The notes under the pieces: generated by a model
What the model saw: only the letters and a program-made list of their open reading frames with translations
What the model was told of the DNA's origin: nothing
Databases searched by the model: none
DNA from: a virus
Taxonomy: Duplodnaviria; Caudoviricetes
Virus record (IMG/VR): IMGVR_UViG_3300020247_000002
Location: 1-64,000 of that record
Length of the DNA: 64,000 bases
Direction: 5' to 3' (one strand)
Made by a program: the position numbers and the translations under genes
In this document: in pieces, positions 24,534-44,466 of the stretch
Position numbering within the stretch: position 1 is the first letter of the stretch
Layout: each line of letters begins with the position of its first letter

Positions 24534-24539
24534 AGACAA

Positions 24540-30500: not shown

Positions 30501-32057
30501 TTGAGACTAACAATTCCAAATAACGTTGGTGTTATTAGTGCGTTCAATACTTTAGTTCTTGACAACATTCAAGGTGTACCTAAAGTTGACTCCTCATCTG
30601 CTATCGTATATGTTGGTGGTGGCGGAACCAGTGTTGTAAATGGTGGTTCTATTCAGTACCTACAAAATGTAACTGATGGATTGCACTTCCGTGTTAGACA
30701 TTCTAATCATGGTATGTACTCTCAAGAAGATAGTGTAGTCTTGAGTGGTGTTGAAGCAGATGTAAAACCAGAGAAATTGACATCTACAGTTGATTCTTCA
30801 AGTACAGAAGATATGACTGTTACTGCTATTGGAATCTTCACATCATTTGAGAATATTGAAGTTAACAGTTCTAACCCAGGCTATGTTAAAATCGGAAACG
30901 AGATTATCAAATACACTGGTGTAACAACTACAACCTCGACTCTTAATAACATCACTAGATCTGTTGATGATACTAAGGCTGGTGACTACAATGTCAATGA
31001 CAAGATTTATAAGTATGAGTTGAATGGTGTTTCTCTCAGAAGAATCAACACATCTCATAGTTTCATTCCTACTAACAATACTACCTATCCTATTGACGTT
31101 GATCATTACTGGATCAAGGTTGGTGTTTCAAGTAGAGGTGTAGACAGAGCAACTGGAAATGCGAATGGATTCCCAGAACTATTCTTCAGAGAGAATAAGT
31201 CTGGTGGTAGTTATGATCAACAGTATGTACAGGTCAGTAACTCTTATGGACCTATGGCAACTCAGAACATTGCGTTCAATATTGTCAGACCTAATGTTGC
31301 AACTCTCTTACCAGAGGGAACTGACATCAGCGCTAAGGTCAGAACATTCTCAGGAAATAGTCCTGATGGTAACTTGAAATCATTTGTGGATCAAGGTTAT
31401 GAGTCAGTATCACTACAGAGTAATAACGTCTTATCTACTCCAAGAATCGTTGCTTCTAAAGTAAACGAACTTGCAAAACTTACTGATTTCCCAGGCAGAA
31501 AGTCATTTACACTACAAACAAATCTAACTACAGATGATCCTAAAGTGAGTCCTATGATTGACTTGGATAGAGTCAACATGATCACAATTATGGATAGACT
31601 CAACTCTAAGATTAGTGATTATGCAACTGACAGAAGAGTTAATTCAATCGATAATGATCCTAGTGCCGCAGTTTACTTATCTAAGGTTGTGAATCTTGAG
31701 AAGTCTGCTGATGGATTGAAGGTTATGTTTGATGCGTACAGACATTCAACAAATGACATCAGAGTTCTATACAGAATATTCAGAATAGATGCTCCACCTC
31801 AGTATCAGTTATTTGAACTATTCCCAGGCTTTGAAAACTTAGATTCCAACGGAAATGTGATAGATCAGTCAAAAAATAACGGTAAACCTGATAGAAGAAT
31901 CCTCGCATCTCAGACAGAAGATGACTATAAAGAGTATGAATTCAACGTGAAGAATCTTCCACAGTTCAATGGATTCCAAATCAAGATTGTAATGTCAGGA
32001 ACTAACTTCGCTTATGTTCCTAAGATTCGTGATCTAAGAACTATTGCATCTATCTAA
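24540..32057 (+). CDS. VrlC-like / DUF4815 large virion structural protein
   Basis: 2505 aa; NLNSSPYFDDF...YQRVLFKPGLPVQSRELTTLQSILQNQ, APGADR, RFKSGFFVDNF, DPLAQSF, GSLFKSQNG. Confidence 0.85.
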   Translation: MPQNTNLNSSPYFDDFNELKNYQRVLFKPGLPVQSRELTTLQSILQNQVEKFGKHFFKEGSVVIPGQIAYDNEYTCVQIDDSHLGIPVSVYLDNLIGKKIKGETSGVTAKVETYITNRTSVKGAYTLYIKYNSSSDTDFSRKTFADGENLLLEEDMNYSLSSIRQGASFATTLISNAVATGAAAKIAQGVYFIRGFFVTVADSTVILDQYNNKPSYRIGLLIKEELVTASASDNDLYDNARGFSNFAAPGADRFKLSTTLIKKSLTDLNDENFVELMRVVDGVLQKFVKPGADNYNLIRDELARRTYDESGHYYVKPFPLVAKECLNDRTGNDGAFYPNQLTQQGNVPSEDLMCLSIGPGKAYVKGYEIETLNTTTVDVPKPRDTAKIVNESLPFSVGRQIEVNNVYGSPLLGISTSSYVKLFNERTSTVGTSNGEQIGVARVYDMKLKNVGYADSSTVFETSLYDIQTFTYLQLNTGTTVQCPTYVTGQNSNATGYAYTSANNSTQLTLYQVNGQFQVGEELFFNGFTSNRSITEVEDYGVEDIKQLVSNDPTNYPFTADPVLGLGHLIAPIATQFTVSANSGSASTITSPSASFVNSGIKTGDIIQYSISGNSVPTFNRVTNTSAVAISLEATVDVENVCSGALPTSAVSANDLFKVTLEVQNNSQAFLFSELTKPNVASVELNGADIIFKKSYNVTVSSNAFSGTLETDADLTLEPFDEEDYNLTFKTSGTVESLTDQKLTVSGRTVTLSGLDTASGAAVLTVTWKKVNVKPKSKIFKRATTYTLNKSSKTQSGTGLMKLNDGLTYDTTFGNRVQDDRLSLGVCDVAEVLAVLESSSTADPQFPILQLTNLNSNILNAVVGENIVGKTSGASAVFVATNGSNEVSFVSQNENAFEIGEEIIFEETKVAGTVQTFIPGDRDIKNNYEFDPGQRLDYVDFSALVRKSGTEAPTRRITIVYNNFVIDEADPGDFVTINSYEKKYYKGTLPFVGTIPISDIIDLRPRVTSTVAGKAPWEFEARQFTPGSSSSSHVLAKDKSFNLSYEYYLGRIDKLFLSKEGIFTLSQGVPSELPKLPNTIDNALEVATIQLPPYLYDPAEAQITIARHKRFRMKDIASIENRIKNIEYYTSLSLLEVETTNMSLRDPQTNLDRFKSGFFVDNFKSVTGGDVTNSSYKASVDAKEGRLRPQHYTTSIDLLLGSEAIVGAATSSNPTADYRFVEDLGDSNVKRIGDVVCLNYNDTIYLENEFATRIENVNPFAVVNWIGQVELNPGTDTWIETRRTAATYDIEGSFNSTMGITGADSNTGLSPVDWGSWETTWTGSSTFTSPSLFSETRTTVTGRSTRRGHFQRHRGIPITTTTNFRDRTTNFREQTTTTTTNQTRQGIQFRVGERFDTTSLGDKVVNTEVIATMRSRNIEFICRRLKPNTRLYPFFDSIDMSKYVIPKLIEITMVSGTFGAGEVVEGSRPNTNNDAIRFRLANQNHKYGPYNNPNQVYKQNPYDPASSISSTYSSTTTLLNVDTASLELQAASGFYGYITTGMKLIGQSSGAIATVTAIRLITDKAGALLGSLFLPDPTVPSAPSFNTGTKTFTLSSSPTNSTISGFTDSSGEANFTSSGTLQTVEASTLRMRNADVQRIPQSADRTLTDSSSRLVVDNTFANRSTSQTRWVDPLAQSFEVPDVNGVFLTKCDVYFQAKDTNQLPVTLQVRTLQTGLPTQEILPFGECILDPDEVVISDDGSKATTFTFPAPVYCEGGGEFALVLLSASNEYYVFISRMGEEDITTVNAADSEKIIVSQQPLLGSLFKSQNGATWDPSQLEDLKFNLYRANFTATAGRVNFYNPDLEVGNRQIVSLANNPIDMLSYNAVVGLGKSLTASEQAGLTEGTTIYQQANPNFSANLNKVLGAIGVGSDLTITNGGSGFSATSVVYSGVPLISQFGKGTGATVNLTVDNRVAVAATVAIGGTGYSAGDVLTVSATNTGGFGKDLRLTIPNNVGVISAFNTLVLDNIQGVPKVDSSSAIVYVGGGGTSVVNGGSIQYLQNVTDGLHFRVRHSNHGMYSQEDSVVLSGVEADVKPEKLTSTVDSSSTEDMTVTAIGIFTSFENIEVNSSNPGYVKIGNEIIKYTGVTTTTSTLNNITRSVDDTKAGDYNVNDKIYKYELNGVSLRRINTSHSFIPTNNTTYPIDVDHYWIKVGVSSRGVDRATGNANGFPELFFRENKSGGSYDQQYVQVSNSYGPMATQNIAFNIVRPNVATLLPEGTDISAKVRTFSGNSPDGNLKSFVDQGYESVSLQSNNVLSTPRIVASKVNELAKLTDFPGRKSFTLQTNLTTDDPKVSPMIDLDRVNMITIMDRLNSKISDYATDRRVNSIDNDPSAAVYLSKVVNLEKSADGLKVMFDAYRHSTNDIRVLYRIFRIDAPPQYQLFELFPGFENLDSNGNVIDQSKNNGKPDRRILASQTEDDYKEYEFNVKNLPQFNGFQIKIVMSGTNFAYVPKIRDLRTIASI

Positions 32058-32622: not shown

Positions 32623-33296
32623 TGGCAGATTACTTAGTCACTCTCAACGAACCTGGCAGTTATAATGTCGGTGTAGACTATGAGATTCCCTCAAAGTCGA
32701 TCCAATATGGTAATATCATTATTGGAAAAACACCAGTGCAAGATGGTACTGAAACTACATTTAACCTAAATGATCAAGGGGCACCATATACTCCTAACAA
32801 TAATCAACAACTTATTGTTACTAAAAATGGTCTTTTCCTAGATCCATCGAATGATTATAATATTTCTGGAGATCAAGTTGTATTTACAACTCCTCCAGCA
32901 GCAAATGATGACATAGTAATCATTGCTCTTGCTGCAGCTGCTGATTTAACACGAACTGTAAACTATGTTATTGACAGCGGCAGTCTTCCAATGCAGCCTG
33001 GTGATAAAGGTAAAGTCACAATAGATGTTACTGGAATCATCGAAAATATCAGAGTCTTATCCGATCAGACTGGTGATATTGTTCTAGAAATAGAAAAATG
33101 CACTTTCGCAAATTATCCGAATTTTACTAGTATTACTGGTGGCGCGAGAGTTCAATTAACCAATTCGGATAAATACTTTGATGATGTCCTAAATAATTGG
33201 ACGACTACTATTGGAGCAGGGGATATTCTCCGTTTCACTGTAGTAAGCGTGAATAATATTAGAAGGTTACTAATCTCTCTAAAATTAAAATTATAA
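32622..33296 (+). CDS. Hypothetical structural protein
   Basis: 224 aa; LIVTKNGLFLDPSNDYNISGDQVVFTTPP beta domain; coupled to the upstream gene. Confidence 0.75.
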   Translation: MADYLVTLNEPGSYNVGVDYEIPSKSIQYGNIIIGKTPVQDGTETTFNLNDQGAPYTPNNNQQLIVTKNGLFLDPSNDYNISGDQVVFTTPPAANDDIVIIALAAAADLTRTVNYVIDSGSLPMQPGDKGKVTIDVTGIIENIRVLSDQTGDIVLEIEKCTFANYPNFTSITGGARVQLTNSDKYFDDVLNNWTTTIGAGDILRFTVVSVNNIRRLLISLKLKL

Positions 33297-33299
33297 ATA
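33292..33299 (+). promoter_or_regulatory. T4 late promoter
   Basis: Exact TATAAATA overlapping the upstream stop codon. Confidence 0.8.
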
Positions 33300-33341
33300 A
33301 GTATAGTTCTTAACGTTCTAAGACCCTAGAGGTAGTTTTCA

Positions 33342-34349
33342 ATGGCATTACTCGTTCCTAATATTGGTGAAATTGAGTCGCTGCGTTATCTGATTGCTCA
33401 GAATAACTTTGTCGCAGATTTAGAAGATACATCACCGCGAAATCTTGTATTAAAACTTTTTACAAGTAACACGACCCCTGCTGAGGGCGATGTTCCGTCT
33501 GCAACTGCGTACTTTGAACCCTACATTGACGGAAACGTTAACGGTTACGGTACTACTGCAAATACTGGTTATCCTGTTTGTGTAAACAACAGAGGAGATC
33601 AGGATTATAACCAGCAGTATGGTATCCTGTTGAACGGATCTAGATGGGTGATCAAGAACGTTGGTAGTGGTACAACTGCTACATATCCAGAACAAACATT
33701 TACTTTCACTGGACCTGCTGGTAACATCTACGGTTACTACGTTACTAGAGCAAATAACATGCCTGTTGCAGTACAGGGTGTTGTTCATGGTGCTGGTGTT
33801 GGTATTGGAACCACTGTTACTAAGGGTAATAACACAGACCCAACTATCGGTGTTGTCGGTAACTCTTACCTCACAATCGACCCACAAGTTAGTATTGACG
33901 ACTTAACATTAGGACAGTTCGTTGCTGGTAACGCTGGTATCGCAACTGGTACTAAGATTATCGGTATTGACAGGGCTTACAGAACGATCTACCTAGACAA
34001 ACCTCTGGTTGATAACATACAGGTTGCAACTGACCCATCAGTTACATTCAGTTTCGGTAAGATTACGTTTGCTAACCACGGACTTAGATCAGGTGATATC
34101 CTCTATGTTAACGCTGGTACTGGTAACACAACTCTTGAGTCTAATGTTTACACCGTATTCGATGTTCCTAATGCAGATGAGTTCGTAACAACTCCTTCAT
34201 TAAGTGCCACATCAAACGGTAACTTAGGATTAAACACTGCGACTCTCTACAGTTCAATTATGTACGCTGAGAGATTCACAAACGGTCCTTACAACATCCA
34301 GAACAACGGAGACCAAATCAAGATTACTCTAAACGTCGCACTCGACTAA
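33342..34349 (+). CDS. Hypothetical virion structural protein
   Basis: 335 aa; GAGG ribosome-binding site; LKLFTSNTTP...YGYYV...YAERF..GPYNIQNNGDQIKIT; flanked by a late promoter and a terminator. Confidence 0.8.
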   Translation: MALLVPNIGEIESLRYLIAQNNFVADLEDTSPRNLVLKLFTSNTTPAEGDVPSATAYFEPYIDGNVNGYGTTANTGYPVCVNNRGDQDYNQQYGILLNGSRWVIKNVGSGTTATYPEQTFTFTGPAGNIYGYYVTRANNMPVAVQGVVHGAGVGIGTTVTKGNNTDPTIGVVGNSYLTIDPQVSIDDLTLGQFVAGNAGIATGTKIIGIDRAYRTIYLDKPLVDNIQVATDPSVTFSFGKITFANHGLRSGDILYVNAGTGNTTLESNVYTVFDVPNADEFVTTPSLSATSNGNLGLNTATLYSSIMYAERFTNGPYNIQNNGDQIKITLNVALD

Positions 34350-34373
34350 TAGAAACACTAAATATCAATATGT

Positions 34374-34410
34374 GGACTCTGCTTTATAATTAAGGCAGGG
34401 TCTTTTTATT
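34374..34410 (+). terminator. Rho-independent terminator
   Basis: GGACTCTGCTTTA-taat-TAAGGCAGGGTCT stem (with G-U pairs) followed by T-rich tail. Confidence 0.7.
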
Positions 34411-34423
34411 TCGGGGGAAACCT

Positions 34424-37400
34424 TTGACAGTATTTGTCTACGACAATACGAAGATAGATCAATTCACTACGTTCCAAGGCGGTGACATTACCGTAGCGTC
34501 AGTGGAGAATATTGACTATGGCGACATAAATCAACATGTAGAACCCGAAAGAGACGAGAATTTTTTCTTTGTAAACGACTGGGGACTTATCACTGCTACA
34601 GCAGATGTACTCCCATTCGGCCCAATAGAAGTAGTAGATGGAAGAGACGAGTTTGGTAGATCTAGAGCTCAGTGGATTCCAGAGAACGCAAATACTGTAC
34701 TGTTTGATATAAATGACTCTGCATTAGAGTCAGCAGTAACACCTTGGGTGGGTACTGGTACAATTCATGAATTTGGTAACGGTCTCGAAAGAGTCGTCAT
34801 ACCAGATCTCGGAGCGGCAGGAGCTGTCATCTTCATCCCATCTGGGACAGCAGAAGAATCTATATCTAGAGGAAATTATATCGGTGCTGGTGCGATTGCC
34901 AAGTCAGGGCTGTCTGCAACCGACCTAGACCAAGTTTATCCGTATAATGGTAGTGGCTCTGTATCCATAACTGGAACTCAACAGACTCCATACAACGAAG
35001 CCTACTTACCAATTATCAAGAACGCCTTTAGGGCGAAGGGTGGAGATACCAGACTATTTGACGTTGAGAAAGTCATATACAACTACGCCAGATCTGAGTC
35101 TGACGTATTCGAGAAAGAAGATAACGGCACAATTACAGTTAGAGAAGGTGCATCCTTCGATAATCTCAATGTCACATTTGACGAGATTATCACAGATCCT
35201 CTTGCGAAGGAGAGATCATTCTCTGACGAAGATCAGGTAGAATTTGAGAGTTACGGAAATATACTTTCTACACCTACATCTGCTGAAGATTACGGTGTAA
35301 TACCACAGAAATTACAAGGCGGAATATTCTTCGACGAATATCAGGCAACCACTGTTGGTGGCGAAGATGCTATCATTAGAGGATATCACGGTTCTGGTAC
35401 ATTCAAGAAAGAGGGTGTTGCAGATGCAGATCGTTTCTTTGCATACTCTGGATCTGGTACAGCAACATTCTCTGGAGAGAACTTCTTCAGTCAGGCACCA
35501 CAAAGTACATTCTTCGGTCTTGAGGGTGAGGTTGCCATATCTGGTAGTGCAGATGAGGCATTTGTCCCTGCAACTGTCGATAATACAGTTCTCTTCGATA
35601 TATCTGGAACTGGTGCTGACAGTAGAGTCCTACTTCCTGATACTAAAAAGGCTCTTGTTAGACTTACTGGTTCTGTATCTGGTATCGCTATCGTTACTGG
35701 TAGTGGAGATAAATCCAATACAGTTCTCTTCAATACTTCTGGTGCGGCAACAGATGTTGTACTTGTCAAGGATTACGAGAATACAAATCTATTCAATTTC
35801 TCTGGAGGGATGCAACAGGGTATACCTGTTTACACTCCTTCTTGGATATCACCTCTTGGAGATCAAAAAACAGAAGAATACGATTGGGGTCTTATCACTG
35901 CTACTCCAACTCAGCAGTCAGAAGATTGGGGACCAATCAATACAAACGACGAGACAATACCGAAGGAAGCAGAGAACTGGGGATTCTTACTTCCAGACTT
36001 CAACTACGTTCAGATCGGTGGTCAGCATTATCCAAACAGAGAACTTACATTCTCTACTGGAGATTCAAGTCTCATTGTACAGACAGATGGAACTACAGAG
36101 ACCGCAACCTTCCTACTTTCAGAAGATCTCGACGTTGCAGCTGCAATCGATTACGAGTCCTCTGGAAAATCTGGTATTGCTACACACAATGCTGGTATAT
36201 TCATATCTGGAGAACTATGGTTATCACAGGCTCCACAACACACAGTATTCGGTGAAGAAGGACAATTCAGTATTCTCGGTACTGGTAATGAGTCTATTAC
36301 ACCATTCATACCAGAAGGATCTGGTTCACTCTTCACTATTGGTGGTGCTGCAGAATCCAGCACCAAGGCATACTTGGTTGGAGATTACCAGTTCATCTCT
36401 GGAGAGGCAAGTGTCAACTTCGCTCCACATATCACTGGTGTTGGTACTGGAACGTTCAGTCAAGGAAGAGAACCTTATCAGACATATGCTCGTAAGATCA
36501 ACATTCCTGATGATGAGTTTGGTGGAACCATTTCTCTTACTGGTAATACCATCTTTGAGAAGAACACAGATTCTTACAACAGGTCTTCCATACTATTCGG
36601 TACAGAAAACGAAGACTATGGACTTATCAGTGTCGAAGATGTTGGTCGTGGATTCTCACTTACAAATGTTGGAATCGGAATTACATCCGTTGAATCTCTC
36701 GATGCTGGAGATATTACCTTTGACAATTCACAATCAACTGGTCTTACATATGACGAGGCAGTTGGTGGTCCTGGCGTTCTTCCAACGTTCGATAAGAACC
36801 AACAATATAATCTCGGATTTGATTCCAATGTTGTTTCTGAGGATCGTGGTATTCTCGGAATCAGTTCTGTTGGTGGTCGTCCTTACACCAGACTATATCC
36901 TTCCGATACTGGATTCGATCAACAGGAAATCAACAAAGGGTACGAAGATTCTGGATTCATCACAGACCCAGCACCAAGGGAATCTCAGTTCCCATTCGGA
37001 AAGATTGTATTCCCAACAATCCCTGCCAAGTTTACTCAGTTCATCCCAAGTTGGATTGGTTCTGGTTCACTTATCGTATCTGGTACTGGAGTCGAGAGAG
37101 TTGCAGTTGCAAGTAGCACAACATCTCTATTCGACTTTGTTAGTGGTGCAGATGAAAGATTCATCGTTGATACTCAAGAAGGAACAGTTCTATTCGATAT
37201 CTCTGGTGATGGTGATACAAGTAGAGCAAGAGACTTTGTTGGATCTGGAAATATTACCCTTCAACAAACTCAAGCGGTTGGGTTTACAACTTACAGAAGG
37301 ATACTCAATCCACCCGCTTCTGGTATTACTACATTCTCTGGAGCAGCCATCGAGGCATCCAGTTTCGATCCTCCAGAAGGAACTTACCTACACATTGTTG

Positions 37401-39079
37401 GTGGCGGATACACAGAACTCAGTGCAACCTTTGCTACTCAATCCGATAAGGCAACCTTACGTCTGGTTGGAGAACTTACACATCCACAAATCGACTTCAC
37501 ACCTCACTATGGTATCGAAAGGAACATTGGTATCGAAACAGGTATGTTCCTCTTGCCTGGTGGTGGAGAGGACAGAGAGACAGGTATTGTTACTACAAGG
37601 TTCTTACCAAGATATCCTGGCTCTGGTATTATCAGTCTCAACGGTAAGGCAATCGGTCGTACTAACGCTCCTATTCTTACTGACGGTACAATCTACATTC
37701 TCGGTATTGGTACTGAGGCCAATGGTGAAATTGGTGAAGATGGAATTGGCGATCTTAACGGTGTTGAGTTTGGTGCAAAAGAAAGATTTGTCCCTGCAAC
37801 CGAATTTGGTGCTGGATCTCTCCTATTCGACTTCCAGACAACTGGAGCAGATGCAAGACCAGTTTCTGTCTTTGGTTACTATGGAGACGACAAAGATCCA
37901 GGCACATCTGGTCAAATCACTATCCGTCAGGAAGGTGGTATTCTCACAATCGAGAAAACCTCTGTCCCAGAAGTCGGCAGTGGTACATTTACTTATCACG
38001 GTGCTGGTCAAGACGAAGCAACATCATCTGTCGAAGTTGGATCTGGTTCTCTGTTCGCAGTTGGTGGTATTGCAGAGGCAACTGCTGCTGCAGAACTTGT
38101 CGCTGGAACTTCTATATTCAATGGAACGGCAGAAGAATCCTTCTCCGCTCAGACTCCAGAAGATACTGCAACAATTACACTATCTGGAGATGCTGGTGCC
38201 TTCCGTCAACGCCAGTTCGAGGGATCTGGAACTCTCACACTCAGCAACGATCAAAAAGTCGTTACTGGTATCATACTTTCTCCAACAGGTTCTGGTTCGC
38301 TATTTGCAGCTGGTGGTGCTGCAGAATCTATTGTTGTACCATCTGCTGCAAGGGCAATCCTTACAGATATTACAGGTGCTGCAGAAACAAGATACTTCCA
38401 AGTATTCCAAGACTTTGTTCCATCTGGTACACTCACACTATCTGGAGAACTTACACATCCAGATATCGATTACACTCCAGCTTACACTGGTGTTGGCATC
38501 GCTACCTTCTCTGGAAGTGCAAGAGAACAAGGATTCTTCAGAGAAATTGGTGTTGGTATCGCTACATTCTCTGGTGCATCAGTTGTCAGATTTACAGCGG
38601 ACGATCTGGAAGGAACAGTCCTCTTCGATCTCAAGGGAGCATCTGCACTTACAGAACTCAATCAAGTTTACGGATACTATGGAGACGACAGAGATCCAGG
38701 CACATCTGGTATCACTACAATCTCTGGTGTTGGTATTACAAAACCAGTACAAGTATTTGGGTACTACGGAGACGACAGAGATCCAGGCACATCTGGAACA
38801 TTTACATTCTCCAATACACCTCTCGTACATCCATTTGTCGATTTCACACCTTCGATTGGTATTGGTGTTGCAGTTCTTTACCAGACAAGTGGAACAGCTG
38901 TCGAATCCTTTACCTTCGCCAACTACAAGACTCAAGGAAGATTCAAAGGCCTTGCAGGAGCTAAGGAATCTCAAGCTCGTGCAACTTACGTTGGAATTGG
39001 TCAAGTTAACACCTTCGGTAATGCTGAAACAGAGTATGCGGTCATCGAAGAAGGTAGAACTTTCGTTGTCATAATCTAA
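34424..39079 (+). CDS. Large acidic repeat-rich putative fibre/structural protein
   Basis: 1551 aa, TTG start after GGGGG; repeats of GSG..T.SG.A.E, [ED][DY][WY]GLI, and GYYGDD[KR]DPGTSG x3; no Cys. Confidence 0.8.
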   Translation: MTVFVYDNTKIDQFTTFQGGDITVASVENIDYGDINQHVEPERDENFFFVNDWGLITATADVLPFGPIEVVDGRDEFGRSRAQWIPENANTVLFDINDSALESAVTPWVGTGTIHEFGNGLERVVIPDLGAAGAVIFIPSGTAEESISRGNYIGAGAIAKSGLSATDLDQVYPYNGSGSVSITGTQQTPYNEAYLPIIKNAFRAKGGDTRLFDVEKVIYNYARSESDVFEKEDNGTITVREGASFDNLNVTFDEIITDPLAKERSFSDEDQVEFESYGNILSTPTSAEDYGVIPQKLQGGIFFDEYQATTVGGEDAIIRGYHGSGTFKKEGVADADRFFAYSGSGTATFSGENFFSQAPQSTFFGLEGEVAISGSADEAFVPATVDNTVLFDISGTGADSRVLLPDTKKALVRLTGSVSGIAIVTGSGDKSNTVLFNTSGAATDVVLVKDYENTNLFNFSGGMQQGIPVYTPSWISPLGDQKTEEYDWGLITATPTQQSEDWGPINTNDETIPKEAENWGFLLPDFNYVQIGGQHYPNRELTFSTGDSSLIVQTDGTTETATFLLSEDLDVAAAIDYESSGKSGIATHNAGIFISGELWLSQAPQHTVFGEEGQFSILGTGNESITPFIPEGSGSLFTIGGAAESSTKAYLVGDYQFISGEASVNFAPHITGVGTGTFSQGREPYQTYARKINIPDDEFGGTISLTGNTIFEKNTDSYNRSSILFGTENEDYGLISVEDVGRGFSLTNVGIGITSVESLDAGDITFDNSQSTGLTYDEAVGGPGVLPTFDKNQQYNLGFDSNVVSEDRGILGISSVGGRPYTRLYPSDTGFDQQEINKGYEDSGFITDPAPRESQFPFGKIVFPTIPAKFTQFIPSWIGSGSLIVSGTGVERVAVASSTTSLFDFVSGADERFIVDTQEGTVLFDISGDGDTSRARDFVGSGNITLQQTQAVGFTTYRRILNPPASGITTFSGAAIEASSFDPPEGTYLHIVGGGYTELSATFATQSDKATLRLVGELTHPQIDFTPHYGIERNIGIETGMFLLPGGGEDRETGIVTTRFLPRYPGSGIISLNGKAIGRTNAPILTDGTIYILGIGTEANGEIGEDGIGDLNGVEFGAKERFVPATEFGAGSLLFDFQTTGADARPVSVFGYYGDDKDPGTSGQITIRQEGGILTIEKTSVPEVGSGTFTYHGAGQDEATSSVEVGSGSLFAVGGIAEATAAAELVAGTSIFNGTAEESFSAQTPEDTATITLSGDAGAFRQRQFEGSGTLTLSNDQKVVTGIILSPTGSGSLFAAGGAAESIVVPSAARAILTDITGAAETRYFQVFQDFVPSGTLTLSGELTHPDIDYTPAYTGVGIATFSGSAREQGFFREIGVGIATFSGASVVRFTADDLEGTVLFDLKGASALTELNQVYGYYGDDRDPGTSGITTISGVGITKPVQVFGYYGDDRDPGTSGTFTFSNTPLVHPFVDFTPSIGIGVAVLYQTSGTAVESFTFANYKTQGRFKGLAGAKESQARATYVGIGQVNTFGNAETEYAVIEEGRTFVVII
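35355..39074 (+). CDS. Candidate overlapping gene in the +1 frame of the 1551-aa gene
   Basis: Frame is stop-free from 35301 to TAA 39072-39074; possible starts TTG 35355 or ATG 35367 (GGTGG upstream); main-frame NTA codons here are always followed by a pyrimidine. Confidence 0.5.
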   Translation: MVAKMLSLEDITVLVHSRKRVLQMQIVSLHTLDLVQQHSLERTSSVRHHKVHSSVLRVRLPYLVVQMRHLSLQLSIIQFSSIYLELVLTVESYFLILKRLLLDLLVLYLVSLSLLVVEINPIQFSSILLVRQQMLYLSRITRIQIYSISLEGCNRVYLFTLLLGYHLLEIKKQKNTIGVLSLLLQLSSQKIGDQSIQTTRQYRRKQRTGDSYFQTSTTFRSVVSIIQTENLHSLLEIQVSLYRQMELQRPQPSYFQKISTLQLQSITSPLENLVLLHTMLVYSYLENYGYHRLHNTQYSVKKDNSVFSVLVMSLLHHSYQKDLVHSSLLVVLQNPAPRHTWLEITSSSLERQVSTSLHISLVLVLERSVKEENLIRHMLVRSTFLMMSLVEPFLLLVIPSLRRTQILTTGLPYYSVQKTKTMDLSVSKMLVVDSHLQMLESELHPLNLSMLEILPLTIHNQLVLHMTRQLVVLAFFQRSIRTNNIISDLIPMLFLRIVVFSESVLLVVVLTPDYILPILDSINRKSTKGTKILDSSQTQHQGNLSSHSERLYSQQSLPSLLSSSQVGLVLVHLSYLVLESRELQLQVAQHLYSTLLVVQMKDSSLILKKEQFYSISLVMVIQVEQETLLDLEILPFNKLKRLGLQLTEGYSIHPLLVLLHSLEQPSRHPVSILQKELTYTLLVADTQNSVQPLLLNPIRQPYVWLENLHIHKSTSHLTMVSKGTLVSKQVCSSCLVVERTERQVLLLQGSYQDILALVLSVSTVRQSVVLTLLFLLTVQSTFSVLVLRPMVKLVKMELAILTVLSLVQKKDLSLQPNLVLDLSYSTSRQLEQMQDQFLSLVTMETTKIQAHLVKSLSVRKVVFSQSRKPLSQKSAVVHLLITVLVKTKQHHLSKLDLVLCSQLVVLQRQLLLQNLSLELLYSMERQKNPSPLRLQKILQQLHYLEMLVPSVNASSRDLELSHSATIKKSLLVSYFLQQVLVRYLQLVVLQNLLLYHLLQGQSLQILQVLQKQDTSKYSKTLFHLVHSHYLENLHIQISITLQLTLVLASLPSLEVQENKDSSEKLVLVSLHSLVHQLSDLQRTIWKEQSSSISREHLHLQNSIKFTDTMETTEIQAHLVSLQSLVLVLQNQYKYLGTTETTEIQAHLEHLHSPIHLSYIHLSISHLRLVLVLQFFTRQVEQLSNPLPSPTTRLKEDSKALQELRNLKLVQLTLELVKLTPSVMLKQSMRSSKKVELSLS
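37877..38797 (+). repeat. Three near-identical 36-bp direct repeats
   Basis: tactayggagacgacaragatccaggcacatctggw at 37877-37912, 38675-38710 and 38762-38797. Confidence 0.9.
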
Positions 39080-39083
39080 ATCC

Positions 39084-39091
39084 TATAAATA
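39084..39091 (+). promoter_or_regulatory. T4 late promoter
   Basis: Exact TATAAATA in the intergenic gap. Confidence 0.85.
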
Positions 39092-39124
39092 AATGGAGAA
39101 GCATAACTATTGGACATCTGATTC

Positions 39125-39583
39125 ATGACCAAGCAGGTTCAATTTAGAAAAGGAACGACAGCTGAACACTTTAACTTTACTGGAGCTCTGGCAGAGATAA
39201 CAGTAGATACTGACAAGAATACCGCTGTTGTACACGATGGGTCTACCCCAGGCGGATTTGAGCTTGCAAGGGCAAGATGGACGTTTGTATCTGGAAATTA
39301 TCCATTAAGTACAAACCAAAAATACACTGTTGATTCGCAGAATAGTCCCTCTGGATTCGATCTCGCCATGCCAATCCCTCGTGCGGTTGGTGACTGGGTA
39401 TGGATCGAAGATTTTGCTAATTTCTTTAGCATACATCCTATTAACGTTACATCACAATACAGTTTTGAAAACGGACATTTAGTTAGAGAATCTTCACCTT
39501 TTATCATGGACGTTTCGGGTGCGTCAGTGACTTTTATTTGGAATGGTTCCCTTTGGAAAGTATTCAACAATAGGGCAAGTTAA
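39125..39583 (+). CDS. Fibre-associated protein with Mtd N-terminal-like domain
   Basis: QVQFRKGTTAEH..FTGALAEITVDTDKNTAVVHDG.TPGG; its C-terminal domain resembles the C-terminus of 40027..44466. Confidence 0.7.
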   Translation: MTKQVQFRKGTTAEHFNFTGALAEITVDTDKNTAVVHDGSTPGGFELARARWTFVSGNYPLSTNQKYTVDSQNSPSGFDLAMPIPRAVGDWVWIEDFANFFSIHPINVTSQYSFENGHLVRESSPFIMDVSGASVTFIWNGSLWKVFNNRAS

Positions 39584-39585
39584 CA

Positions 39586-39990
39586 ATGGCACTTACGCTA
39601 AGTAATTCTATTTCTGGACAGTTTGACCCCTCCGAATCGTCGGGTTTTTTCGTGTATGCACTCAGAAGAGATGCAGAAGGCATGTTGCTGTTCTCCAAAG
39701 TTAGTGCGGCTTCAACAGAATTAGGAGAATTCTATCGTAACGATGGAACTGCTATACCAGAATTCGGTGATGGTTTAGATTATGGTACTTACGATGTTGG
39801 TGTTGGTAAAACATCAATCATTCGTAGTGATATCGCTACTGAAAAAAAATTCGTAGATGATCCGAATGATAAATACCAACAGATTCGCTTTGATCGAAGA
39901 AACTTATACTATTACATAGACGATGATGGCTTTTTCGTTATAAGATTTAATGGTCCTGACTATGCTTATAACAGCATCGGACCTAAGTAA
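39586..39990 (+). CDS. Hypothetical virion-associated protein
   Basis: 134 aa; YALRRDAEGML and YQQIRFD.RNLYYYIDDDGFFV; in an operon with the fibre genes. Confidence 0.75.
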   Translation: MALTLSNSISGQFDPSESSGFFVYALRRDAEGMLLFSKVSAASTELGEFYRNDGTAIPEFGDGLDYGTYDVGVGKTSIIRSDIATEKKFVDDPNDKYQQIRFDRRNLYYYIDDDGFFVIRFNGPDYAYNSIGPK

Positions 39991-40026
39991 AAATCCCAAA
40001 CCCTCAGATAATTACACGGAGAAAAA

Positions 40027-43000
40027 ATGGCTGAGTTTAGACTTGGAAGAGTAAAATTCAACTGGACAGGTGACTGGACAACATCCAAAGCCTATTTGAT
40101 TGACGATATCGCCAAGTTTGGTGGTAACACTTATGTGGCAATCGAAAACCACACGTCAACAGCAAGCGTCAGTGACTTTTACGCCAACGACCTTTCCAAA
40201 TGGAACGTCCATATTGAAGGTCTAGAACAAAAAGGACAGTGGCAAGCTGGAGTTTACTATCGTATCAACGATCTAGTAAAATTTGGTAACGTTGTCTACA
40301 GAGTAACCACTGCTCACACATCAGAAGGAACTTTCATCGATGCGACGAAAGTATCGGAATATGTAAAAGGATTCCAAAACGAAGGTGAGTGGGATCAGAA
40401 CAATGAATACCAATCAGGTGACGTTGTAAACTACAACGGTTCATCTTATGTTGCGTTAACCACATCACTTGCTGGTTTCCAACCTCCACAGTATTTGGGT
40501 GTTTCTACAGACCCAGCTGCAAAATGGAGTATCTTATCTGATGGTCTTGCTGGTGCTGCATCAACATATACAGAGGGTACTTACTATAGAGGAGACTTAG
40601 TTCAGTATGGTGGTAACATTTACCGTCATAAGATCGGTATTACAACTAACGTTTCTCCATTACAGGTTGGTTTAGGATCAATCTTCCCCGAAGGATATCA
40701 GGGCGGTCAAGTATGGGATTTACTTGTCAAAGGATTTGATTTCAAAGGCGGTTTCTCCACGACCTTTAACTACCATCCAGGCCACGTTGCAAGATACGGT
40801 TCGGACTCTTATGTTTCTATCGGTAACTCTCACAAGAATGTTATTCCTATTGCTGGAATCGGAACATTCTGGGAAGTACTTGCATCAGGAGATTCATCCG
40901 CTGCTCTTAACACCAAGGGTGACTTACTTACATACAACTCAGGTAACGTAAGAATCGGTATCGGTTCTACTGGTTACGCACTTGCAGTTCAGTCAAATGG
41001 ATTACCTGGCTACGAGATTGTAGGTAACCAAACTAGAATTTACTACGTTGACTCCGAAGACGGATTAGACACATATAACGGTCTTGCACCTAACTTGGCG
41101 TTCAAGACTATCAAGAAGGCTTGCGAGGCTGCTCGTCCTAAGACAGATATCACCAATATGGTGTATACCGCTTCCACTGGTGTGGCAACGGTTACTGCGC
41201 CTGGTCACGGTCTGTTAAACACTGGTACGTTCGTTCAGTTACAAGACATCGAGTTTGAGTGTCTATCTGGAGGTAACGTATTTACTGTCTTGGGTATGAC
41301 CTATAACAAGGCAGTTGGTCTTGCGACTATTACTGCTATTGGTCTTGGTGCTGCTCCCGAAGTTGGAATTGGTGCAACAGTTAGAATCAGAAACTTAAGT
41401 GTCCAATACCAAGGTTCCGCACAGTTCGCCCATACATTCCAGAGTGCATTAGCAAATGCTATTCAGTCTGGTGGTGACTATTCTCACACATTTAACAGTT
41501 GCGCTCCAAACGGAGTTCAAGTTGTTGGTGGATCAGCTGTAACACCTACAAGTGCTACATACGATCCTTCAAATGGTAACTTTATAATGACCCTTACTGG
41601 TCATAGTTTATCAACTTCCGATAAGGTTACTATTGCTGATAACGCATTTACGTTCACCTGTACGATGAACAACAATGGTTCTCAGAAGACATATCCTAGA
41701 CCTGGCAAAGACCCTGCACAAGGACAACAGTTAAGTATTACAGGTACAACAACTGATACATTTACTGTAAACGTTGGACCTTCTCCAATCGTCAACCATC
41801 AACCATCTGCGGTTTCCTATAACCAAGCAACTGGTGACATGGTTTGCACAATCGGTGCTCACGCATTAACAGTTGGTACTTCTGTAAGATTAGAAACAGA
41901 TGGTATGACATTCCGTTGCTCAATGGACGGATATACAACTGATCACTCTTATCCTCGTGCTGTTGCTGGAGACGGAAACCCTGACCCTGCATACAATACA
42001 GCTCTTAACATTACCGCTGTTACAACCAACACAATTACAATTAACGTTGGTACTGCGTCTGATGACCAGACAATCACTGGTAAGTTCCCTGCTGTACATA
42101 CTCAAGGTACTTATGAATTCCTTGTACAGGCTGTACCCGACTCTAACTCAATCACTCTTAACGTAGGTGTTTCAACTACTGATTACCTCTATGTTTCTGG
42201 TGGTACTGCGTTCGTTGGTCTAACAACTACTATCTACCCAGATAAAGTTGCTAAGTCTTACTACGAAGTTCTTGAAGTTCCTGATGTTGACAACTTTAAG
42301 GTCAACGTTGGTATCTCAACTATCAACCACACATACGTTGAAGGTGGTAAGGTAACAGACCTAACACCTGCTATCTTGAAACTGTCTGCGTCTCAGTTCT
42401 ATGAACAGTTACCAGTTACAGTTCCTCCTTTCACTTCGATTGTTGGTAACGCACTTAGAGGTTCTCAGGTTCTACCTAAAGATGGAACATCTGATGACTC
42501 TGTGACTCCTAACAACAGAAGTCACATGTTCAAGATGTCTGATGCAACAACTATTCAGGCAATCTCCATGAAAGGAATGGAAGGATTCTACTATGATCCT
42601 AACGCTCCTTTACAGTTAGACAATGCAAACTTAAGAACTGGTATCGGTACAACTGCTGCTGGTGTGTTCATCTCCTTGAACCCAGATTCACCTATCGATA
42701 ACAAGTCACCTTACGTTAAGGACTGTACTTGTTTCTCTGACCCTGCAACAGAAAGTGGCAGATTCGGTGGTGGTGGTGTTGGTGTATTCATCGATGGTGG
42801 TGTACACGACACTGGTGCAAAATCAATGGTGTTCGATGCGTTCACGCACGTTGCATCTGATGGTGCTGGTTACATTCTTGATAAGGGTGCAATCGCTGAA
42901 ATCGTTTCCTGTTTCACATACTACGCTAAGTGGGGTTACTACTCAGGTGGTGGATCAAGAATCAGGGGTGTTGGTGGAAACAACTCTTACGGAGACTACG

Positions 43001-44466
43001 GTGTTATCTCATCTGGTTTCTCAACTGATGAAGTTCCAAGAACTGCACAAGTCTTCGGTGACATGATGGAAGTTCAAGGTACAACTAAGGCTGGAACAGT
43101 TTCAGTTGGTGCTACCATGTTCGGACAAACATCTAAGGCAACTGCATGGTTCTTGAACGATCAGATTTCTGCTGATAAGATTTACTTCAAGTATCAGTCT
43201 GGTTACGGTAACGCTGGTATCGGTACAACTGGATTCGTAGACGGTGAAATCGTCTGGTTCGGTGCTGGTGCAGAACAGAGTTCTGGTATCGGTTCGATCA
43301 CAGTTGGTGCGGCTGCATCTTCCACAACTGGACAAAAAGGTACAATTCTAGAAGTTGACCAAACATCTGGAACACTTCTAATCGGTGATGCTATTGGATT
43401 CCAAACATCACTATATGGTGCAGATGATAGATTCTACATCATTAACACAATTACGGGCGTATCCGTCGCATCCACTTTCTTTGAGTGGCAGGCAGGATCG
43501 GGTGCTGGACAACAAGTTGTCTACAATAATCGTGCAACTCTGACAATCTCTCCTGAGAAATCAAGAGGAACATGGGATACTAGAAACTTAGGTTCTGGTC
43601 AAGGATCTGATATTCAAATCAGAACACTGTTCTCACAGGCAAGACTAACAGGACATGACTTCCTCGCAGTTGGTACTGGTAACAAGACTGAAACTGGATA
43701 TCCAAACGTCAACTTGGCGAACGTTATCCAAGGTCAAGAAACTAACGTGTTCGGACCTGGTAAGGTGTTCTTCGTATCTACCGACCAAGGTGGTAACTTC
43801 CGAGTTGGAGACTTCTTCTCCGTTGACCAGTTGACTGGTCGTGCTACATTGGATGCTTCCGCGTTCAACCTTTCTGGTTTGACAGAATTGAGACTTGGTG
43901 CGATTGGTGGTCAGGTTGGTGAGGCGATCAACGAATTCTCCTCTGACGAGACACTCGCTGGTAACTCTAACACTGCATGTCCTACAGAATTTGCGGTTAA
44001 GGGATTCTTAACTCGCGGTTCAATGGGTATCAAGGCAATGACACCTCCTGTTGGTACAACTGCTCAAAGACCAGGCGGTATCGACGACGAGTTCAACACT
44101 GGTGCGTTGAGATTCAACACTACCTTGGGTGCTCTTGAGTACTACAACGGTACTTCATGGATTCAGCCTGGTGTTAAGACATACAGTACAGTTTCCTCAA
44201 GTACATCTGTAACTTCTGGAGTTACATACTTTGTTAACACAGGTGGTGGTCAGGTAACATTGACCTTGCCTGGATCACCTAACTTAGGTGACGAAATTAC
44301 TTTCATGGACGTTGCGAAGACATTTGATTCTAACGCACTTGTATGTGGAAGAAACGGTAGACCAATTCAAGGTGACAATGCTGACTTGACAGTTTCAACT
44401 GAAGGTGCTGCATTTACCCTCGTTTACTCTGGTTCTACATACGGTTGGAGAATCTTCTCCATCTAA
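40027..44466 (+). CDS. Tail fibre-like protein with N-terminal CBM5/12 (ChtBD3)-like repeats
   Basis: 1479 aa; about 6 W....Y...D.V.YGG..Y repeats; GHDFLAVGTG, STDQGGNFRVG, INEFSSD..L motifs; GGAG ribosome-binding site. Confidence 0.8.
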   Translation: MAEFRLGRVKFNWTGDWTTSKAYLIDDIAKFGGNTYVAIENHTSTASVSDFYANDLSKWNVHIEGLEQKGQWQAGVYYRINDLVKFGNVVYRVTTAHTSEGTFIDATKVSEYVKGFQNEGEWDQNNEYQSGDVVNYNGSSYVALTTSLAGFQPPQYLGVSTDPAAKWSILSDGLAGAASTYTEGTYYRGDLVQYGGNIYRHKIGITTNVSPLQVGLGSIFPEGYQGGQVWDLLVKGFDFKGGFSTTFNYHPGHVARYGSDSYVSIGNSHKNVIPIAGIGTFWEVLASGDSSAALNTKGDLLTYNSGNVRIGIGSTGYALAVQSNGLPGYEIVGNQTRIYYVDSEDGLDTYNGLAPNLAFKTIKKACEAARPKTDITNMVYTASTGVATVTAPGHGLLNTGTFVQLQDIEFECLSGGNVFTVLGMTYNKAVGLATITAIGLGAAPEVGIGATVRIRNLSVQYQGSAQFAHTFQSALANAIQSGGDYSHTFNSCAPNGVQVVGGSAVTPTSATYDPSNGNFIMTLTGHSLSTSDKVTIADNAFTFTCTMNNNGSQKTYPRPGKDPAQGQQLSITGTTTDTFTVNVGPSPIVNHQPSAVSYNQATGDMVCTIGAHALTVGTSVRLETDGMTFRCSMDGYTTDHSYPRAVAGDGNPDPAYNTALNITAVTTNTITINVGTASDDQTITGKFPAVHTQGTYEFLVQAVPDSNSITLNVGVSTTDYLYVSGGTAFVGLTTTIYPDKVAKSYYEVLEVPDVDNFKVNVGISTINHTYVEGGKVTDLTPAILKLSASQFYEQLPVTVPPFTSIVGNALRGSQVLPKDGTSDDSVTPNNRSHMFKMSDATTIQAISMKGMEGFYYDPNAPLQLDNANLRTGIGTTAAGVFISLNPDSPIDNKSPYVKDCTCFSDPATESGRFGGGGVGVFIDGGVHDTGAKSMVFDAFTHVASDGAGYILDKGAIAEIVSCFTYYAKWGYYSGGGSRIRGVGGNNSYGDYGVISSGFSTDEVPRTAQVFGDMMEVQGTTKAGTVSVGATMFGQTSKATAWFLNDQISADKIYFKYQSGYGNAGIGTTGFVDGEIVWFGAGAEQSSGIGSITVGAAASSTTGQKGTILEVDQTSGTLLIGDAIGFQTSLYGADDRFYIINTITGVSVASTFFEWQAGSGAGQQVVYNNRATLTISPEKSRGTWDTRNLGSGQGSDIQIRTLFSQARLTGHDFLAVGTGNKTETGYPNVNLANVIQGQETNVFGPGKVFFVSTDQGGNFRVGDFFSVDQLTGRATLDASAFNLSGLTELRLGAIGGQVGEAINEFSSDETLAGNSNTACPTEFAVKGFLTRGSMGIKAMTPPVGTTAQRPGGIDDEFNTGALRFNTTLGALEYYNGTSWIQPGVKTYSTVSSSTSVTSGVTYFVNTGGGQVTLTLPGSPNLGDEITFMDVAKTFDSNALVCGRNGRPIQGDNADLTVSTEGAAFTLVYSGSTYGWRIFSI

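Follow-up and report, generated by a model that had tools for sequence, protein, structure and literature searches.

Depletion of stop codons from both alternative sense frames of a giant gene in a cyanophage tail-fibre cluster

We analysed a window of 64,000 nucleotides of viral DNA (Duplodnaviria; Caudoviricetes; positions 1 to 64,000 of the IMG/VR record IMGVR_UViG_3300020247_000002), in which a giant gene, hereafter the main gene, is strongly depleted of stop codons in its two alternative sense frames. The purge affects only the three stop triplets, only on the sense strand and in codon phase, and, within this phage, only the main gene. Such a purge of off-frame stops without conservation of an off-frame peptide is very unusual. 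Judging from sequence comparisons, our preferred reading, in which we place somewhat less than even confidence, is that this may be one conventional gene under ribosome-linked selection against off-frame termination, not on an off-frame peptide. As part of that same reading, the selection would be strong, old, gene-specific and purifying, and would act from about codon 293 to the gene end. The coordinates of all features are collected in Table 1.

Table 1. Features of the main gene and of its alternative sense frames, in positions of the window.
Feature	Position	Strand	Remarks
Main gene, TTG start	34424..39079	+	1551-aa ORF; putative tail-fibre-cluster structural protein, by homology and gene order
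Stop-free +1 frame	35301..39074	+	1257 sense codons + TAA 39072-39074; first TTG 35355, first ATG 35367
Nested +1 ORF, TTG start	35355..39074	+	1239 aa
N-terminal 292 codons, ordinary off-frame stop density	34424..35299	+	Internal control
Last +1 stop before the open run	35298..35300	+	TAA across main codons 292/293
+2 stop-free run, three sense frames open	35713..36255	+	180 codons
+2 stop-free run, three sense frames open over ~1.2 kb	37768..38964	+	398 codons
Middle zone	36292..37647	+	+2-open runs of 67, 91, 74 and 65 codons between +2-stop clusters

By homology, the source phage is a marine, T4-like cyanophage of the S-SSM7 type, and the main gene is the homologue of S-SSM7 gene SSSM7_110, whose record carries the note 'T4-LIKE GC: 1333'. 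Compared with S-SSM7 positions 88177-92835, the identity is 86% at the nucleotide level and 85% at the amino-acid level, with a dN/dS of 0.25. Gene order is shared with S-SSM7-type cyanomyoviruses, the same genes flanking the main gene in four phage records, and the neighbours match tail and virion PHROGs. A G-rich, Shine-Dalgarno-like run lies directly 5' of the TTG start, with which an ATG aligns in distant clades. Pfam gave nothing for the main protein, PDB sequence searches with the main and +1 products returned nothing informative, PHROG 11522 (unknown function) matches residues 877-973, and an Atlas feature search with the main protein retrieved only unnamed viral clusters at scores of 0.83-0.85, which have the value of a lead. 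The protein is internally repetitive, and the repeats within its first 292 codons are weakly homologous to those of the remainder of the gene, hereafter the body (for example, residues 87-187 with 1266-1367). The GC content of the gene is 43%, no internal T4-type late promoter was found within it, and no tRNA genes were found in the window. Two sets of metatranscriptome contigs contain parts of the gene (25/30 and 8/30 bins), although such contigs cannot show frame, ends or transcription.

The main gene has 17 stops in the +1 frame, 16 of them within 34425-35298; the only other one is the terminal TAA, which begins 5 nt ahead of the main stop at 39077. An earlier note, made from the sequence alone, had described the same open run with its closure 5 nt before the main stop, the many +1 stops of the first ~290 codons and a possible start at ATG 35367; the coordinates are confirmed, and both this ATG and the peptide TMETTEIQAHLV that it listed are present in the +1 frame. 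As a null, we used 2000 synonymous shuffles of the main gene that keep its codon usage. For the open part they give 28.3±3.1 +1 stops, with a minimum of 18, and only the terminal one is observed (internal stops in the body: 0 vs 27-28 expected, z = -9.1); permutation of whole codons of the open part gives 31.4±3.3. In the comparison with the null, the first 292 codons score 15 +1 stops vs 18.3±2.0 expected, and the adjoining 1479-aa gene 57 vs 57.7. The longest same-strand nested stop-to-stop frames in the other giant genes reach 149 and 139 codons, which makes the previous figure of at most 147 aa about right. For the two alternative sense frames of the main gene, z is -8.2 and -7.6, and its absolute value does not exceed 2.4 in any of the 40 other long frames of the 91.9-kb contig (21 of at least 250 aa in the window and 19 of at least 200 aa in the rest of the contig).

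The +1 frame is open because NTA codons almost always precede C or T. The open part holds 44 of them, followed by C in 19 cases, by T in 24 and by A once, at the terminal stop. A purine follows NTA in 1/44 vs 56-81% for all 15 other codon classes, among them the NCA, NAA and NGA codons with 65-69%. Of the codons that stand ahead of one starting with AA, AG or GA, 18% end in T, vs 46% of those ahead of others, and the junction words TAG, TAA and TGA rank among the most depleted in the main gene. Chance and codon bias as causes of the open +1 frame are ruled out by the shuffles together with these counts, and the earlier note, which had set codon bias aside and proposed the shuffle, was right in this. 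The two antisense frames that shuffling can alter have z = +1.1 and -0.5. The stop-free trait is absent from the phage's other giant fibre-like genes, in which +2 TGA is enriched (z +3 to +5).

Three further candidate causes were rejected. All giant genes of the phage share general codon-pair biases, with junction TTT depleted and T-GG junctions enriched, and these genome-wide preferences leave the stop purge unexplained. Recent DNA repeats fail as a cause, only short, motif-level repeats having been found, and so does the repeat fold, since the N-terminal repeats and distant relatives show normal stop counts.

The +2 frame was not mentioned in the earlier note. Its body has 50 stops vs 103.3±6.3 expected (z = -8.3), the depletion lying in the conserved segments, and the first 292 codons have 23 vs 26.3±3.3. 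The +2-open state is kept by homologues across about codons 450-600. In codons 1125-1510, 23.6±3.1 +2 stops and 7.1±1.6 +1 stops would be expected under the null, and none of either kind is observed; the three-frame-open state of the longest +2 run is kept in homologues at 38-98% identity. Variation of the protein peaks in the middle zone, which has the highest dN; the highest synonymous diversity of the gene (codons 651-850) lies within it, and the rare +1 stops of other clades at aligned codons 774 and 853 fall there.

Our homologue set comprises 52 rows, 49 of which contain the body, and many are near-duplicates. Between 0 and 5 +1 stops are found in 48/49 body-bearing rows (38-98% identity) vs null means of 6.5-30.7. 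The frame is wholly open, with alike boundaries, in the clade at 83-98% identity, where it opens after codon 293 and closes 5 nt ahead of the main stop, and in L014, L016, L036, L032/33 and L040. In most homologue clades the open run starts at an equal aligned place, and in every clade it extends to the 3' end of the gene. The other clades carry 1-5 shared, old +1 stops (aligned codons 454, 463/467, 774, 853 and elsewhere), remain stop-free downstream of them, and these stops were lost towards the crown clade. The earlier note had asked whether homologues keep the +1 frame open with the same boundaries; the 83-98% clade and some others do. In relatives at 27-32% identity, depletion is intermediate or absent, and +1 stop counts are normal in those at 29-32% identity with a GC of 0.36.

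Selection on the openness of the +1 frame is still visible between close relatives. Among 19 representatives, NTA has a share of 13-40% ahead of pyrimidines and occurs 0-4 times in ~200 positions ahead of purines, against an expectation of 28-83. In the comparison of the window with S-SSM7, turnover between A and non-A wobble bases at Val, Leu and Ile codons amounts to 15/68 ahead of pyrimidines and to 0/111 ahead of purines (24.5 expected), and ten further pairs show a like pattern. Wobble turnover being absent ahead of purines, selection against +1 stops is still acting; together, the shuffles, the homologue counts and this turnover establish selection on the +1 frame, suggested by the earlier note, as real, old and ongoing.

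A real +1 protein is an unlikely explanation of this selection. It would be a nested gene or a frameshift isoform sharing the first ~293 residues, long but able to take almost any sequence; a ruler, a partner in assembly or a filler of disordered or hydrophobic character would be examples, and the +2 runs might encode more such products. The length of the +1 ORF is hugely significant by single-genome criteria, its openness and boundaries are retained as described above, each clade's run reaches the 3' end, and the purge sets in just after ~292 codons of normal stop density. Furthermore, the codons of the +1 frame look somewhat more like those of genes than expected (z = 4.4 when the null, too, lacks +1 stops; a second null, which drove +2 stops to zero, gives z = 2.6 and is indicative only), and the hydropathy of the off-frame translations follows that of the main frame slightly above the null in 10/10 trait-bearing homologues (z 0.9-3.8; controls -1.2 to +2.4). 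These two features could hint at some peptide-level selection, but both are confounded by +2-stop avoidance, and hydropathy tracking arises without peptide selection because T-ending codons are avoided before Asp, Glu, Lys and Asn codons.

What speaks against such a protein is that the main gene shows no synonymous-site constraint across the overlap: main-frame dS has the same value inside it and in the N-terminal part (0.385 each), synonymous diversity is higher in the body (0.263) than N-terminally (0.196), and the wobble-match excess between distant clades is alike inside and outside. TTG 35355 and ATG 35367 are unconserved among homologues, even at 83-85% identity; no conserved start codon or RBS was found at the beginning of the frame, and no start codons follow the internal +1 stops of other clades. 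No signal for frameshift entry was found either: codons 284-329 of the codon alignment contain no canonical slippery site by eye, the RNA fold of 35270-35420 is not unusual (z = -0.93), and Rfam gave no match at E<=1 for 33000-40500. Codons 283-294 have a very low synonymous diversity (0.042), as do 14 other windows along the gene. Many clades break the +1 frame at their old shared positions while the remainder stays open, the +1 amino-acid composition equals the shuffled expectation, and over the last 424-427 codons the identity to the window is 26-81% for +1 translations vs 44-89% for main translations. Pfam and PHROGs gave nothing for the +1 product, and the database protein search yielded no independent homologues; the only proteins resembling it are 7 single-member predictions, frame mosaics of the main gene family that probably stem from indel-prone assemblies. 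Finally, the +2 frame is purged likewise, and one nested gene cannot explain both. A classical nested gene is therefore poorly supported, and the two products proposed in the earlier note, a gene starting at TTG 35355 or ATG 35367 and a single frameshift product sharing the N-terminus, find no support in that form, given the unconserved starts, the equal dS, the lack of a canonical slippery site by eye, the old stops of other clades and the purged +2 frame. A brief literature search found no ribosome profiling of cyanophage infection.

Tail-fibre genes are a class under arms-race selection, and the main gene sits in a tail-fibre cluster. It is conceivable, although improbable, that the trait serves evolvability: without off-frame stops, compensating pairs of indels would rewrite a host-range protein without truncating it, and open-frame lineages would diversify faster. 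Both alternative sense frames are purged, as this needs, and there are published precedents. [quoted passage not shown] The main gene resembles the PE_PGRS case in being a variable surface or adhesin-type gene poor in stops of both alternative sense frames. It differs in its GC of 43%, in a null that keeps codon usage and in a purge that comes from codon context, and neither mutational hot-spot motifs nor past compensated frameshifts were found in it.

The indel record also weighs against evolvability. Alternative-frame translations from the window and L001-L051 gave 0 blastp matches to main-frame proteins at E<=1e-3, and the 12 matches of a sensitive syntenic search for frame switching all lie in the untranslated leader. 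Under strict gap penalties, every indel is a multiple of three in 13/20 related pairs. The 5 paired non-3n candidates that were examined, taken from 4 pairs, prove to be segments that were replaced and have diverged, and none shows shifted identity of nucleotides; in 3 further pairs the non-3n indels are confined to the opening codons of the stop-to-stop frame or to the inserted domain. Frame-switch evolution and compensated frameshifts thus have no instance in the blastp, syntenic or strict-gap searches. Slippage-prone runs are nearly absent from the body (only three, all of A and 5-6 nt long), and no body indel variants were seen in metagenome contigs. The completeness of the purge also sits poorly with second-order selection, which tends to be weak.

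More improbable still is a non-translational cause, in which a codon-pair, dinucleotide, motif-avoidance or RNA-level constraint would remove the triplets incidentally or the open frames would be a relic of a repeat origin: the phage does have strong general codon-pair biases and the protein is internally repetitive, but those biases are common to genes without the trait and run in the opposite direction for +2 TGA, A-purine junctions are unavoided after NCA, NAA and NGA codons, antisense frames are unaffected, like repeats within the first 292 codons have a normal stop density, and the relatives at 29-32% identity have normal +1 counts. The depletion is also phase-dependent, complete in +1 and segmental in +2, which a phase-blind reader of RNA or DNA would not give, as avoiding a +1 stop costs no more than avoiding a +2 stop. 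A relic, finally, would have decayed: change at synonymous sites is free wherever it creates no stop.

We thus return to ribosome-linked selection against off-frame termination in one conventional gene. Under this reading, selection would strip TAA, TAG and TGA from both alternative sense frames, with full effect for +1 in the clade of the window and for +2 in the conserved segments. With a purge limited to stop triplets, sense strand and codon phase, the selecting agent would most likely be the ribosome. Whether they had slipped or had initiated internally, ribosomes in an alternative frame would be selected against when they terminated inside the gene, and the selected trait would be uninterrupted readability, as passage or as length, and not the off-frame amino-acid sequence. 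Each off-frame stop seems to be modestly costly, which would make the trait graded and not an all-or-none ORF. The fallback offered by the earlier note, that only the act of translation is selected, fits the data best. Points that oppose the reading are the lack of the trait in the other giant fibre-like genes of the phage, the missing entry signal described above and the prevailing ambush idea, which predicts the reverse. Moreover, were run-through to the 3' end all that counted, decay would be expected on the 5' side of long-lived stops; codons 293-774, upstream of the long-lived stop at 774 in the clades that have it, are undecayed in their openness. We know of no mechanism that makes off-frame termination costly.

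A more specific proposal, which we advance with less confidence than the general one, is that readability in all three sense frames may be a designed-in property of the main gene, an 'anti-ambush' arrangement that the family has retained through deep divergence; off-frame ribosomes would have to run on instead of terminating, or their products would be giant +1 and +2 polypeptides of roughly fibre length and free sequence. Our literature searches found no report of the main gene's open frames.

Several known systems offer comparisons. In lambda, Rz1 lies inside Rz as a same-strand phage gene embedded in the +1 frame, and Rz1-type genes are short, with their own start and a conserved protein. 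The likeness is an open +1 frame within a longer same-strand phage gene, beyond chance length and open in relatives; unlike Rz1, the frame described here covers 3.77 kb without a conserved start, imposes no synonymous constraint, breaks in some clades and is accompanied by a second purged frame. Lambda G/GT exemplifies isoforms of tail genes made by programmed frameshifting, the known cases being -1 shifts into short conserved extensions. Here too, an open frame follows the N-terminal part of a tail-cluster protein, and a frameshift product would share that N-terminus; however, no slippery heptamer or stimulatory structure was found, and the 1257 codons are unconstrained. According to the ambush hypothesis (PMC5909447, PMC3700767, PMC2996987), off-frame stops are favoured because they end the run of frameshifted ribosomes early. 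The main gene shares with it the idea of selection on off-frame stops via the fate of frameshifted ribosomes, with the opposite sign: its body loses every internal +1 'ambush' stop, and its neighbours are neutral or enriched in +2 TGA.

The usual view takes off-frame stops either for neutral consequences of composition or for useful 'ambushes' of frameshifted ribosomes, and long alternative ORFs for hidden genes. The main gene fits neither view, with near-total stop removal in two frames, in a family diverged to 38% identity, while the off-frame peptides drift freely. This is a caution for the prediction of overlapping genes, as ORF length and conserved openness may be selected without a conserved protein. 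If a product were made, it would come from by far the longest same-strand nested frame in a phage known to us. S-SSM7 and its Synechococcus host are both cultured, which opens the system to direct tests. Given a translational cause, our results point to an unrecognised cost of internal termination, or a benefit of run-through, in the synthesis of giant fibres. Should the 'anti-ambush' proposal be true, it would be the first documented case in which active selection on codon context keeps alternative frames free of stops although no overlapping protein is conserved, and it would imply that, in phage morphogenesis, terminating off-frame has a cost, or translating off-frame a use, so far unrecognised.

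By its sequence, the window belongs to a T4-like cyanomyovirus closely related to Synechococcus phage S-SSM7, whose positions 88177-92835 (gene SSSM7_110, "hypothetical protein") match the main gene at 86% DNA identity. The neighbours are the same in both phages and match tail and virion-structural PHROGs. The TTG start aligns with the ATG of distant homologues and is preceded by a G-rich Shine-Dalgarno-like run. The protein is G/S/T-rich, internally repetitive at the motif level and under purifying selection (dN/dS 0.25 against S-SSM7); PHROG 11522, of unknown function, is its sole PHROG match, and searches returned no Pfam family and no PDB sequence relative. It contains two Met and no Cys, and in-frame ATG, GTG and TTG total 4 in its last 1259 codons, where the neighbouring 1479-aa gene has 44; internal in-frame starts may possibly be avoided. 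Outside the gene, at 33292 and 39084, are exact octamers of T4-type late promoters. Since the nearest one to the terminator-like hairpin before the TTG is that at 33292, upstream of the preceding gene, this hairpin may reduce the transcription that reaches the giant gene; its sequence is conserved across the 69-73% clade of homologues.

Coordinates of the main gene, associated features and the giant genes with general codon-pair biases
Feature	Position	Strand	Size or description
Main ORF	34424..39079	+	1551 aa
Terminator-like hairpin	34374-34403, tail to about 34413		13 pairs, then T-run; in the 75-nt gap directly upstream of the main-gene TTG
+2 stop-free run	35713-36255	+	180 codons
+2 stop-free run	37768-38964	+	398 codons
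Giant gene with codon-pair biases	3679-12819		
Giant gene with codon-pair biases	13886-22903		
Giant gene with codon-pair biases	24534-32057		
Giant gene with codon-pair biases	40027-44466		neighbouring tail-fibre gene, 1479 aa

The +1 frame has 16 stops within 34425-35298 and the next one only at TAA 39072-39074, which begins 5 nt ahead of the main stop, in agreement with the open frame from 35301 described in the earlier note. For this open part (codons ~293 to the end), synonymous-codon shuffling gives 28.3±3.1 expected stops, with a minimum of 18 in 2000 shuffles, and whole-codon permutation gives 31.4; only the terminal one is observed, which excludes chance. The first 292 codons (15 stops against 18.3 expected) and the next giant gene (57 against 57.7) are normal. 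The codon context is also as the earlier note had it: the open part holds 44 NTA codons, of which 43 precede C or T and one, at the terminal stop, precedes A, whereas for every other codon class, NCA, NAA and NGA among them, the next base is a purine in 56-81% of cases. Before pyrimidines, where they are harmless, NTA codons make up 36% of NTN codons, and the same share before purines would produce 76 stops.

The +2 frame, absent from the earlier note, is also purged, having 50 stops where 103±6 were expected. Here the loss is segmental, short open runs alternating with stop clusters between the 180- and 398-codon runs, and this segment pattern is conserved among homologues. Codons ending in T represent 18% before codons starting with AA, AG or GA, against 46% before other codons. 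Because the longer +2 run lies inside the open +1 frame, about 1.2 kb of this 43%-GC gene is free of TAA, TAG and TGA in all three sense frames; across codons 1125-1510, the null predicts 7.1 (+1) and 23.6 (+2) stops, and none is observed in either.

Expressed as z, the deviation of the off-frame stop count from the shuffle null, the two alternative sense frames of the main gene reach -8.2 and -7.6, while no other frame exceeds |z| = 2.4 (21 of at least 250 aa in the window and 19 of at least 200 aa elsewhere on the 91.9-kb contig). The two antisense frames of the main gene that shuffling can change show no depletion (z +1.1 and -0.5). Repeats in the first 292 codons have weak homology to those of the body, yet carry a normal stop density, so the purge depends on position along the gene, not on the kind of repeat. 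When all 64 triplets spanning codon junctions were compared, the stops ranked with those most strongly depleted. The other strong signals, depletion of TTT (z -5 to -9) and enrichment of T|GG (z +4 to +8), are general codon-pair biases shared by every giant gene of the phage. The three genes of 2507-3046 aa have an excess of +2-phase TGA (z +3 to +5), which the 1479-aa gene does not share (z +1.1); general codon-pair bias was rejected as the cause of the purge. Separately, one antisense frame of the 1479-aa gene has 114 stops against 140.2±5.9 (z = -4.5).

Selection against off-frame stops is still acting. Between the window and S-SSM7 (dS 0.385), 15 of 68 Val, Leu (CTN) and Ile codons before a pyrimidine differ by an A at the wobble position, against 0 of 111 before a purine, where 24.5 were expected; ten further pairs gave 0-1 such differences before purines against 6-27 expected. 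Selection beyond codon bias, as first proposed for the +1 frame, is thus borne out.

Homologues comprised four phage records and 47 IMG/VR loci (52 rows with the window), of which 49 rows contain the body. Of these, 48, many of them near-duplicates, have 0-5 +1 stops against null means of 6.5-30.7, the exception being S-SCSM2R (27% identity; 14 against 23). The frame keeps identical boundaries in the 83-98% clade; other clades carry 1-5 stops at recurrent aligned codons (454, 463/467, 774, 853 and a few more). Such stops come from avoidable choices (at codon 774, CTA Leu before a Thr codon, where the window has CTT); downstream of them the +1 frame remains open, and no start codon was found after them. 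In a quick maximum-likelihood tree, they are common to several deep clades and missing from the crown group, which suggests that they were lost over time. Only about 15 distinct body positions have a +1 stop in any of 21 sequences, on a tree whose total length is several substitutions per site.

A profile built from the last 427 residues extended the search, in a second scan, to relatives sharing 29-32% identity. Among them, a 1090-aa group shows intermediate depletion (z -2.4 to -4.4); in several members a single long +1-open run covers the last 290-440 codons and closes at the end of the gene or no more than about 30 codons from it. An AT-rich group (GC 0.36) shows no +1 depletion (z +0.5 to +2.6). 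The purge is therefore a graded trait, and the protein family does not force it. In four homologues (L034, L039, L040 and L050), a ~190-aa domain, itself with +1 stops, is inserted at aligned codon ~283/284, just before the +1 opening. At about 37950-38000, loci L009/L011/L014/L036 carry alternative short cassettes (e.g. 8 residues versus an unrelated 11) common to clades that differ elsewhere, a pattern suggestive of mosaic recombination inside the gene.

A purge confined to three stop triplets, the sense strand and codon phase, and which is gene-specific, old and still acting, fits, as we see it, no reader but the ribosome, and we infer that ribosomes read the alternative frames of this gene. 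The best explanation, at a little under even confidence, is selection against the termination of off-frame ribosomes anywhere in the final ~1257 codons.

It is unlikely that a protein tolerant of almost any sequence is really made from +1 (and +2). Such a product would fit the codon usage of +1 (z 2.6-4.4) and the tracking of hydropathy (z 0.9-3.8), both weak and confounded by +2-stop avoidance, but the evidence speaks against a conserved off-frame protein. Main-frame dS is 0.385 in both the N-terminal control and the body (segments 0.35-0.40), synonymous diversity among eight sequences of at least 69% identity is 0.196 and 0.263, respectively, and wobble positions of distant clades match no more often in the body than in the N-terminal part. 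As the main-frame wobble is the second codon position of +1 and the first of +2, off-frame peptides are free to change: over the last 424-427 codons, +1 translations are 26-81% identical to the window and main-frame ones 44-89%. The amino-acid composition of +1 equals the shuffled expectation. Neither proposed start of a nested gene, TTG 35355 or ATG 35367, is conserved among homologues. For the suggested frameshift product sharing the N-terminus, inspection of the boundary by eye showed no canonical slippery site, and neither a stimulatory fold nor an Rfam element turned up there. The sole database proteins resembling the +1 product, seven single-member predictions from long metagenome contigs (P0003-P0009), were rejected as independent homologues: they are mosaics switching repeatedly among the three frames of the main-gene family, most likely from indel-laden assemblies, and show how open frames let gene callers read through indels. 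Synonymous variation is nearly nil (0.02-0.04 against 0.26 overall, eight homologues of at least 69% identity) at codons 283-294, right where the open frame begins, 339-350, 1152-1163 and 1472-1483; these patches could be recombination junctions or nucleotide-level elements.

Less likely than such a product, and improbable, is that stop-free alternative frames allow the main protein to be rewritten by compensated frameshifts, a concept with published precedents in PE_PGRS genes (PMC13328622) and a B. subtilis loop (PMC13006647). No trace of compensated-frameshift evolution was found in this family: alternative-frame translations match no homologue's main frame, all indels are multiples of three in 13 of 20 pairs of relatives under strict gap penalties, five paired exceptions examined were replaced segments with no shifted identity, the body has almost no slippage-prone runs (three A runs of 5-6 nt), and in metagenome contigs no indels were seen in it. 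A non-translational cause, which the stop-triplet, strand and phase limits speak against, is more improbable still.

Full-text literature searches found no description of these open frames, and a search directed at ribosome profiling of cyanophages returned none. The concepts that come nearest are nested phage genes, frameshift isoforms, OSC-depleted variable genes and the ambush hypothesis, also about off-frame stops but opposite in sign. Selection against off-frame termination does not explain why the other giant genes of this phage lack the purge, nor the open regions upstream of long-lived +1 stops. Under it, ribosomes would enter the alternative frames and termination there would be costly, each off-frame stop carrying a modest cost of its own, with stops best tolerated in the most variable stretch (codons ~650-850).
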